The notes under the pieces: model-generated
What the model was told of the DNA's origin: nothing
Seen by the model: only the letters and a program-made list of their open reading frames with translations
Database searches by the model: none
DNA from: Escherichia coli
GTDB taxonomy: Bacteria > Pseudomonadota > Gammaproteobacteria > Enterobacterales > Enterobacteriaceae
NCBI RefSeq assembly: GCF_003018255.1
Contig: NZ_CP027440.1
Strand: one strand, 5' to 3'
DNA length: 64,000 nt
Position numbers and translations under genes: made by a program
Shown: positions 45,874 to 48,587 of the stretch, piece after piece
Position numbering within the stretch: position 1 is the first letter of the stretch
Layout: each line of letters starts with the position of its first letter

Positions 45874-45921
45874 AATCGCTTCCTCTTATCAGATATGAGA
45901 GGAGTATACGCAAGATTAGGC

Positions 45922-46161
45922 TCAAAAGAGTGATGGTTGCTCCGGTTCGTCTGATGACGCTGGCTTATTTGCGCGTAATTTGCGCATTAATCGCTGCCGA
46001 CAAAGGCGCAGCACCTCTTGTTTTTCGCCATCGCTCATTTTATTCCAGTTAAAACGCTCATCCCGACTACGAAAACAGCCGCGACAAAACCCGCGTTCGT
46101 CAGACTGGCAAATTCCCCGGCACGGGCTCTGGACGGGAAAGAACTCTAATTGCTCCGCCAC
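45922..46161 (-). CDS. ydhL: DUF1289-family Cys-rich small protein, GTG start, 79 aa
   Basis: ORF 45922..46332 is over-extended; GTG at 46161 is preceded by GAGGAGGG SD; CxxxC...CxxC motifs. Confidence 0.75.
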   Translation of the reverse strand: MAEQLEFFPVQSPCRGICQSDERGFCRGCFRSRDERFNWNKMSDGEKQEVLRLCRQRLMRKLRANKPASSDEPEQPSLF

Positions 46162-46233
46162 TTCGCCCTCCTCAAATAAGATTATTACCATTATTGAAGC
46201 TGTTAATGCCCAAAGTAGCAACTTTGCTTGCAC

Positions 46234-46249
46234 TAGACCGACTGGTCTA
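46234..46249. promoter_or_regulatory. NemR operator (NemR box)
   Basis: TAGACC-GACT-GGTCTA inverted repeat 15 bp upstream of nemR ATG. Confidence 0.6.
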
Positions 46250-46263
46250 CTACACTCCAACGC

Positions 46264-46863
46264 ATGAACAAACACACCGAACATGATACTCGCGAACATC
46301 TCCTGGCGACGGGCGAGCAACTTTGCCTGCAACGTGGATTCACCGGGATGGGGCTAAGCGAATTACTAAAAACCGCTGAAGTGCCGAAAGGGTCCTTCTA
46401 TCACTACTTTCGCTCTAAAGAAGCGTTTGGCGTTGCCATGCTTGAGCGCCATTACGCCACATATCACCAACGACTGACTGAGTTGCTGCAATCCGGCGAA
46501 GGTAACTACCGCGACCGCATACTGGCTTATTACCAGCAAACACTGAACCAGTTTTGCCAACATGGAACCATCAGTGGTTGCCTGACAGTAAAACTCTCTG
46601 CCGAAGTGTGCGATCTGTCAGAAGATATGCGTAGCGCGATGGATAAAGGCGCTCGCGGCGTGATCGCCCTGCTCTCGCAGGCGCTGGAAAATGGCCGTGA
46701 TAGCCATTGTTTAACCTTTTGTGGCGAACCGCTGCAACAGGCACAAGTGCTTTACGCACTATGGCTGGGTGCGAATCTGCAGGCCAAAATTTCGCGCAGT
46801 TTCGAGCCACTGGAAAACGCGCTGGCACATGTAAAAACCATTATTGCGACGCCTGCCGTTTAG
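46264..46863 (+). CDS. nemR: TetR-family electrophile-sensing repressor NemR
   Basis: 199 aa; N-terminal TetR HTH; upstream of nemA-gloA. Confidence 0.9.
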   Translation: MNKHTEHDTREHLLATGEQLCLQRGFTGMGLSELLKTAEVPKGSFYHYFRSKEAFGVAMLERHYATYHQRLTELLQSGEGNYRDRILAYYQQTLNQFCQHGTISGCLTVKLSAEVCDLSEDMRSAMDKGARGVIALLSQALENGRDSHCLTFCGEPLQQAQVLYALWLGANLQAKISRSFEPLENALAHVKTIIATPAV

Positions 46864-46899
46864 CAGGCATTTTTTATCACCAGACGACCGGGAGCCTTT

Positions 46900-47997
46900 A
46901 TGTCATCTGAAAAACTGTATTCCCCACTGAAAGTGGGCGCGATCACGGCGGCAAACCGTATTTTTATGGCACCGCTGACGCGTCTGCGCAGTATTGAACC
47001 GGGTGACATCCCTACCCCGTTGATGGCGGAATACTATCGCCAACGTGCCAGTGCCGGTTTGATTATTAGCGAAGCCACGCAAATTTCTGCCCAGGCAAAA
47101 GGGTATGCTGGTGCACCTGGCATCCATAGTCCGGAACAAATTGCCGCATGGAAAAAAATTACCGCTGGCGTTCATGCTGAAAATGGTCATATGGCCGTAC
47201 AGCTGTGGCACACCGGACGCATTTCTCACGCCAGCCTGCAACCTGGCGGTCAGGCACCGGTAGCGCCTTCCGCACTTAGCGCGGGAACACGTACTTCTCT
47301 GCGCGATGAAAATGGTCAGGCGATCCGTGTTGAAACATCCATGCCGCGTGCGCTTGAACTGGAAGAGATTCCGGGTATCGTCAATGATTTCCGTCAGGCC
47401 ATTGCTAACGCGCGTGAAGCCGGTTTTGATCTGGTAGAGCTCCACTCTGCTCATGGTTATTTGCTGCATCAGTTCCTTTCTCCTTCTTCAAACCATCGTA
47501 CCGATCAGTACGGCGGCAGCGTGGAAAATCGCGCACGTCTGGTGCTGGAAGTGGTCGATGCCGGGATTGAAGAATGGGGTGCCGATCGCATTGGCATTCG
47601 CGTTTCGCCAATCGGTACTTTCCAGAACACAGATAACGGCCCGAATGAAGAAGCCGATGCACTGTATCTGATAGAACAACTGGGTAAACGCGGCATTGCT
47701 TATCTGCATATGTCAGAACCAGATTGGGCGGGGGGTGAACCGTATACTGATGCGTTCCGCGAAAAAGTACGCGCCCGTTTCCACGGTCCGATTATCGGCG
47801 CAGGTGCATACACGGTAGAAAAAGCCGAAACGCTGATCGGCAAAGGGTTAATTGATGCGGTGGCATTTGGTCGTGACTGGATTGCGAACCCGGATCTGGT
47901 CGCCCGCTTGCAACGCAAAGCTGAGCTTAACCCACAGCGTGCCGAAAGTTTTTACGGTGGCGGCGCGGAAGGCTACACTGATTACCCGACGCTGTAA
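46900..47997 (+). CDS. nemA: N-ethylmaleimide reductase (Old Yellow Enzyme family, FMN)
   Basis: 365 aa; recognised NemA. Confidence 0.93.
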
Positions 47998-48077
47998 TCC
48001 AACATTGCGAGCGGCGCAAAGCCGCCGCTATACTAAAACAACATTTTGAATCTGTTAGCCATTTTGAGGATATAAAG

Positions 48078-48485
48078 ATGCGTCTTCTTCATACCATGCT
48101 GCGCGTTGGCGATCTGCAACGCTCCATCGATTTTTATACCAAAGTACTGGGCATGAAACTGCTGCGTACCAGCGAAAACCCGGAATACAAATACTCACTG
48201 GCGTTTGTTGGCTACGGCCCGGAAACCGAAGAAGCGGTGATTGAACTGACCTACAACTGGGGCGTGGATAAATACGAACTCGGCACTGCTTATGGTCACA
48301 TCGCGCTTAGCGTAGATAACGCCGCTGAAGCGTGCGAAAAAATCCGTCAGAACGGCGGTAACGTCACCCGTGAAGCGGGTCCGGTAAAAGGCGGCACTAC
48401 GGTTATCGCGTTTGTGGAAGATCCGGACGGTTACAAAATTGAGTTAATCGAAGAGAAAGACGCCGGTCGCGGTCTGGGCAACTAA
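48078..48485 (+). CDS. gloA: glyoxalase I (lactoylglutathione lyase)
   Basis: 135 aa; recognised GloA ([26 protein letters not shown]...). Confidence 0.95.
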
Positions 48486-48587
48486 TCTCCTGCCGGGCGT
48501 GAACTCATCGCGCCCGCATCTTTACTGCATCGACAAGTAATATTTGTCATAATGCGCGCTGCAATTTATCCGTATTAAGAGAATCAG

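Follow-up and report, generated by a model that had tools for sequence, protein, structure and literature searches.

Upstream of nemR, in the 64-kb stretch of the E. coli chromosome analysed here (the window), a short perfect inverted repeat stands close to the start codon, and the question it raises is which regulator uses it, and for which gene. Reading the sequence at 45900-46500 (E. coli chromosome) located the repeat TAGACC-GACT-GGTCTA at 46234-46249, exactly where a sequence-only reading had placed it. Its two arms, TAGACC and GGTCTA, pair without a mismatch and flank the 4-nt centre GACT within the sequence ...gcacTAGACCGACTGGTCTActacactccaacgcATG, and the layout in front of the gene is ...TTGCTTGCAC TAGACCGACTGGTCTA CTACACTCCAACGC ATG, where TAGACCGACTGGTCTA is the 16-mer, hereafter the NemR box. 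With the nemR ATG at 46264, 14 nt lie between box and start codon; counted from the A, the final base of the box stands 15 positions upstream, which is the 15-bp distance that had been claimed. We consider it very probable that this repeat is the already known operator of the nemRA-gloA operon, bound by NemR. Of what this interpretation draws on, the sequence, its conservation, the layout of the promoter and the identity of the genes were established here, and NemR binding, induction, read-through and the start site are taken from the literature. The 16-mer is presumably the footprinted NemR box published by Umezawa (2008), an assumption that secondary citations back.

A palindrome of this size is not by itself informative. 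The window contains 27 perfect 6-4-6 palindromes, compared with 15.5 +/- 4.3 in shuffled sequences, and because such palindromes are common, the symmetry alone proves little. What is non-random about the box is that it occupies a TetR-family gene's core promoter, together with its conservation at a fixed distance from the ATG. The 16-mer occurs once in the 64-kb window even when 3 mismatches are allowed, the degenerate form TAGACCNNNNGGTCTA likewise occurs once at 2 mismatches, and the box was recovered as repeat I1 in the inverted-repeat scan, with arms extendable to 11 nt at 82% pairing. A second perfect 6-4-6 palindrome, CAAAGT-AGCA-ACTTTG, was noticed at 46211-46226, 8 bp upstream of the box. 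It was considered as a second operator and rejected, being restricted to Escherichia, within chance expectation and simply holding the -35 hexamer TTGCTA of ydhL.

The ORF downstream of the box (46264-46863, plus strand, 199 aa) encodes the TetR-family repressor NemR, as the sequence-only reading had proposed. Comparison with PDB 4YZE, the K-12 crystal structure entitled 'HTH-type transcriptional repressor NemR', gave E = 1e-124, the ORF is annotated as nemR in 5425 E. coli genomes, and its product keeps Cys21, Cys98, Cys106, Cys116, Cys149 and Cys153 as well as Lys175. On the same strand follow nemA (46900-47997), which encodes the N-ethylmaleimide reductase of the Old Yellow Enzyme family (NF007899, 764-765 bits) and has its own Shine-Dalgarno sequence GGGAG, and gloA (48078-48485), which encodes glyoxalase I (lactoylglutathione lyase) according to the ORF list, a profile match and the annotation. 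On the other side of the box, ydhL (DUF1289) occupies 45922-46161 on the minus strand, with a GTG start at 46161 (annotation; Kim 2012). The gene order in the best-matching genome is ydhK, sodC, ydhF, ydhL, nemR, nemA, gloA, rnt and lhr. The K-12 nemRA-gloA operator (Umezawa 2008; Gray 2013; Lee, Shin and Park 2013) has the same locus and the same downstream genes, and the 51-nt nemRp sequence of K-12 is identical to that of the window. A few substitutions separate the two strains, all of them beyond the core promoter; one such falls in the 51-mer of the ydhL promoter.

Inspection of the region between the box and the genes, guided by conservation and the published transcription start site (TSS), indicates that the box overlaps the core promoter of nemR. 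It occupies the 17-bp spacer between a -35 hexamer TTGCAC (46228-46233, plus strand), which abuts it directly, and a -10 hexamer TACACT (46251-46256, plus strand), which begins 1 nt past it. In an alignment of 36 loci, cTTGCAy is conserved directly 5′ of the box, with TTGACC instead in Yersinia and Serratia, and TAnAnT is conserved 1 nt past it. The combination of TTG..., 17 bp and TAnAnT is characteristic of sigma-70 promoters. The generic promoter scan, whose threshold was 9/12, did not call nemRp because its hexamers match at just 8/12, and the promoter was assigned from the conservation and the mapped TSS instead.

The -10 hexamer ends only 7 nt before the nemR ATG, and no Shine-Dalgarno sequence was found on reading 46250-46263; together these predict a leaderless mRNA, which published start-site profiling confirms. 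Kim et al. (2012, PMC3415461, Table S1) mapped the K-12 TSS to 1724047, the position at which the nemR CDS begins, with 15 reads and a 5′ UTR of 0, and their Table S4 of 'Leaderless mRNAs' contains nemR and its Klebsiella orthologue ydhM (20 reads), which has the same promoter. The K-12 51-mer ending at this TSS maps to 46214-46264 with 0 mismatches, placing +1 at 46264 (plus strand), the A of the nemR start codon. The nemR mRNA is thus leaderless in E. coli K-12 and Klebsiella. Because +1 falls on the A of the ATG, the box lies at -30 to -15, so that the repressor is translated from a leaderless mRNA and its operator is never transcribed. A similar arrangement was observed more widely. Of 51 NemR/CurR-like loci from across Proteobacteria whose match begins at an ATG, 48 have a TANNNT hexamer that stops 5-9 nt short of this codon (background 3.7%), and an SD-like tetramer is present in only 3. 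Judged from these patterns, the leaderless design is family-wide in NemR/CurR-like loci.

Conservation of the box was determined in a scan using one genome per species, which gave 80 loci encoding NemR relatives. In 35 other Enterobacterales loci, whose NemR proteins are 50-97% identical, the box recurs with 0-2 mismatches, and for the 31 of them whose match begins at an ATG, its end lies 13-15 nt ahead of that codon. When the 36 Enterobacterales nemR loci were aligned with the box as anchor, the sole conserved upstream block was cTTGCAy, TAGACCGAnnGGTCTA and nTAnAnT in succession, and the columns upstream of this block, as well as those between it and the ATG, had approximately zero information content. 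Comparative footprinting of this kind picks out the 16-mer independently as the conserved element. Synteny of nemR and nemA was found in all 34 loci with sequence, gloA being next in most, and the box accompanies the pair with or without ydhL as the upstream neighbour.

Within the species, matches to the region 45900-47000, with ydhL, nemR and nemA as the annotated genes, came from 5425 of 5426 complete E. coli genomes. Of the 5426 genomes, 5066 share an identical 40-bp core promoter and another 301 have one mismatch in it, whereas identity across the 1.1 kb around it reaches 99% or more in only 790. One of the 5426 assemblies carries the nemR region on a plasmid-labelled record rather than on the chromosome.

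These results agree with what is known of NemR. Glyoxals and quinones reduce its DNA binding, Cys106-Lys175 is the sensor for chlorine species, and a point mutation in the operator de-represses the operon (review, PMC5297802). Deletion of nemR raises nemA expression 15-fold and gloA expression 5-fold, the latter via read-through (PMC3739934), genomic SELEX gave nemR as the sole NemR target (PMC5934670), and a nemR-promoter mutation predicted to eliminate repression suppresses the loss of RutE (PMC3045373). The description of NemR as a repressor responsive to electrophiles and reactive chlorine therefore accords with the literature (PMC5297802), and autoregulated transcription of nemR-nemA-gloA under its control is supported by the literature, the gene identities, the promoter geometry and the conservation alike.

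The mechanism would be as follows. A dimer of NemR, as a TetR-family protein, would sit on the half-sites TAGACC and GGTCTA, and NemR bound in the 17-bp spacer would keep RNA polymerase off nemRp; this occlusion is what we infer from the promoter geometry. As nemR heads the operon, repression by NemR would amount to negative autoregulation. Modification of its cysteines, known to proceed by N-ethylmaleimide alkylation, by quinone or glyoxal oxidation or through the Cys106-Lys175 sulfenamide formed by hypochlorite, lowers the affinity for DNA and would allow nemRp to fire. A single transcript would then run through nemR and nemA and into gloA, which it would enter because no terminator follows nemA.

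Indeed, no terminator-like site was found in the nemA-gloA gap (47997-48078), and a terminator-like hairpin is present 3′ of gloA at 48494-48516. A promoter-like sequence, TTGCGA-18-TATACT, precedes gloA at 48005-48034, and expression of gloA comes both from nemRp, through read-through, and from a promoter of its own. Inside nemA, a TSS with 31 reads (K-12 1725179, approximately 47396 in the window) is assigned to gloA (Kim 2012, PMC3415461, Table S1). This start lies approximately 680 nt upstream of gloA and does not coincide with the gloA promoter predicted at 48005-48034.

The same 16-mer has, however, been described as a binding site of a second TetR-family protein, and this has to be weighed against the assignment to NemR. 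In a full-text literature search, the only match to TAGACCGACTGGTCTA was the RutR ChIP-chip paper (PMC2475637), which prints the 16-mer for the K-12 ydhM promoter as a RutR target, matching TTGACCAnnTGGTCAA at 11/14 and centred at -22.5 from the start codon. Since ydhM is absent from the four targets that were weak in gel shift, it is among the 16 shifted by RutR (PMC2475637), and binding of RutR to the 16-mer in vivo as well as in vitro means that NemR is not its sole ligand. Our own comparison with TTGACCAnnTGGTCAA likewise gave 11/14, with the critical positions 4 (A) and 13 (T) at consensus, and the RutR-binding site consensus and the box are both 16 bp with equal half-site spacing. It could accordingly be argued that the palindrome is primarily a RutR operator, by which the uracil-responsive regulator of pyrimidine catabolism controls nemRA with NemR as a secondary factor; RegulonDB-derived tables place nemR in the RutR regulon, and the suppression of RutE loss by mutations in nemR or its promoter (PMC3045373) provides a physiological link. 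We nevertheless judge this very unlikely. The RutR study detected an effect on transcripts only at ves (PMC2475637), and the review describes RutR as binding upstream of nemRA-gloA without a role in regulating it (PMC5297802). The box differs from the RutR optimum by A for T at base 2, T for A at base 15 and G for A at base 7, and its A/T pair at bases 2/15 is conserved in this form: the half-sites stay TAGACC/GGTCTA in the 36 loci and never drift to TTGACCA/TGGTCAA. The box is, moreover, inherited together with nemR. Binding of RutR at the box is real, and its regulatory function there is unproven.

Two further explanations concern the neighbouring gene and the nucleic acid itself. The promoter of the divergent ydhL (46186-46221, minus strand) has its TSS at 46186 (Kim 2012, Table S1, 2 reads, mapped onto the window), and its hexamers as read from the sequence are -10 TTCAAT (46198-46193) and -35 TTGCTA (46221-46216). 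Since ydhLp is back-to-back with nemRp and the box lies at -48 to -63 relative to the mapped ydhL start, the repeat might mainly control ydhL as an upstream site. This we regard as even less credible, because the box is outside the ydhL core promoter, is kept before nemR in approximately 14 loci that lack ydhL as a neighbour, and has a fixed register relative to the nemR -35, -10 and ATG. The least credible explanation, with a negligible probability, is that the repeat is a hairpin in RNA or DNA (a terminator, an attenuator or an mRNA-stability element) or a chance palindrome. A 6-bp stem is possible in principle, and the abundance of perfect 6-4-6 palindromes in the window lends this some plausibility, but across the 36 loci it is the sequence of the arms that is kept, with no covariation, which is beyond what chance can produce. 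Transcription from neither mapped start (46264 rightwards for nemR and 46186 leftwards for ydhL) includes the box, there is no T-run at it, the terminator scan made no call there, and no Rfam family matches it. With both starts leaving the box untranscribed and neither a terminator nor an Rfam match, an RNA-level function was rejected. The assignment of the box to NemR, acting on its own operon, is therefore retained.

The junction of nemR and nemA shows features of a different kind. A terminator-like hairpin, GCCTGC-CGTTTA-GCAGGC followed by ATTTTTTAT, spans the nemR stop codon (46851-46868, plus strand), and a hairpin or T-run (GGCGTTTTTATTT) is seen again in other genera. This hairpin fits awkwardly with simple co-transcription of nemR and nemA, and it could set the ratio of NemR to NemA transcripts. 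Just past it, at 46881, a weak K-12 TSS or 5′ end with 3 reads has been reported (Kim 2012, PMC3415461).

Between the T-run and the nemA Shine-Dalgarno sequence, approximately 10-25 nt upstream of nemA, all 33 non-Escherichia Enterobacterales loci carry a second NemR-like palindrome of 15 bp, acTAGnCGACCGGTCTAyT, one form of which is TAGACGACCGGTCTA. Changes in its left arm are not compensated in the other, a pattern that speaks for a protein site and against an RNA hairpin, and the palindrome is accordingly probably bound by a protein. A promoter belonging to this site in the other genera was considered and dropped, as no conserved -35 or -10 was discernible by eye on the alignment. A literature search with the variants of the 15-bp palindrome as sequence strings returned no match. 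In E. coli, a remnant, CAGACGACCGG, is left at 46881-46891, the right arm GTCTA having been deleted, and the intact site is absent from all complete E. coli genomes searched. Because E. coli alone lost a site that is kept in every other locus examined, its single-operator circuit would be derived and simplified relative to an ancestral two-site design.

We also compared the box with the operators of more distant relatives. In 45 loci of NemR homologues that are 39-47% identical, including those of Burkholderia, Vogesella, Photobacterium and Pseudomonas, 34 carry a 15-bp palindrome TAGAC-N5-GTCTA located 30-60 nt upstream of the homologue start, often as TAGACGACTGGTCTA, which is the E. coli box less one C. 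Two half-site spacings thus coexist in the NemR/CurR-like subfamily. The second site ahead of nemA in the non-Escherichia Enterobacterales is of the 15-bp type as well. CurR (PA2196) of the CurR-curA system of Pseudomonas aeruginosa, likewise a TetR repressor sensing NaOCl and NEM, belongs to this group of homologues; NemR matches the CurR model with E = 6.6e-58 and 195 bits, under the family cut-off of 300. CurR-like loci resemble nemR in having TAGAC...GTCTA palindromes and a leaderless-type promoter, whereas their palindrome, at 15 bp, lacks one base compared with the nemRp box of enterobacteria, and their target genes are different.

AltR of Pantoea ananatis (PMC13178969) is a NemR-related autorepressor with a key cysteine and an inverted-repeat operator over its own promoter. 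Its operator, however, has a different sequence, CAATCTAC-N6-GTAGATTG, and extends over both the -10 and the ribosome-binding site, and the signal is thiosulfinates and not NEM (PMC13178969). Operators of the TetR/tetO type share with the NemR box the design of a short palindrome over the core promoter of the repressor gene, which is de-repressed on inactivation of the repressor. In the case of NemR, the inducer acts by covalent cysteine chemistry instead of reversible ligand binding, and a single operator in the promoter spacer takes the place of the tandem tetO1/tetO2. The tetR mRNA of Tn1721 is leaderless too.

The binding of RutR at the box and the lost second site can be combined in one scheme, in which the box is a two-input operator where RutR modulates or competes with NemR, with a lineage-specific loss of the ancestral second site in E. 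coli. We hold this to be unlikely, although less so than primary control by RutR; the suppression of delta-rutE by nemR mutations makes a functional link between NemR and RutR conceivable. If the scheme were true, pyrimidine catabolism would be coupled to the electrophile-defence operon; the toxic aldehyde that arises in the Rut pathway is an intermediate that NemA can remove in the stead of RutE.

The finding correctly marks a regulatory site of textbook type in a well-studied operon for defence against electrophiles, methylglyoxal and bleach, and its use is one of annotation only. The sharing with RutR, the family-wide leaderless repressor mRNA and the lost second site are modest leads for specialists of the TetR family, and they leave the picture of the E. 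coli operon unchanged.
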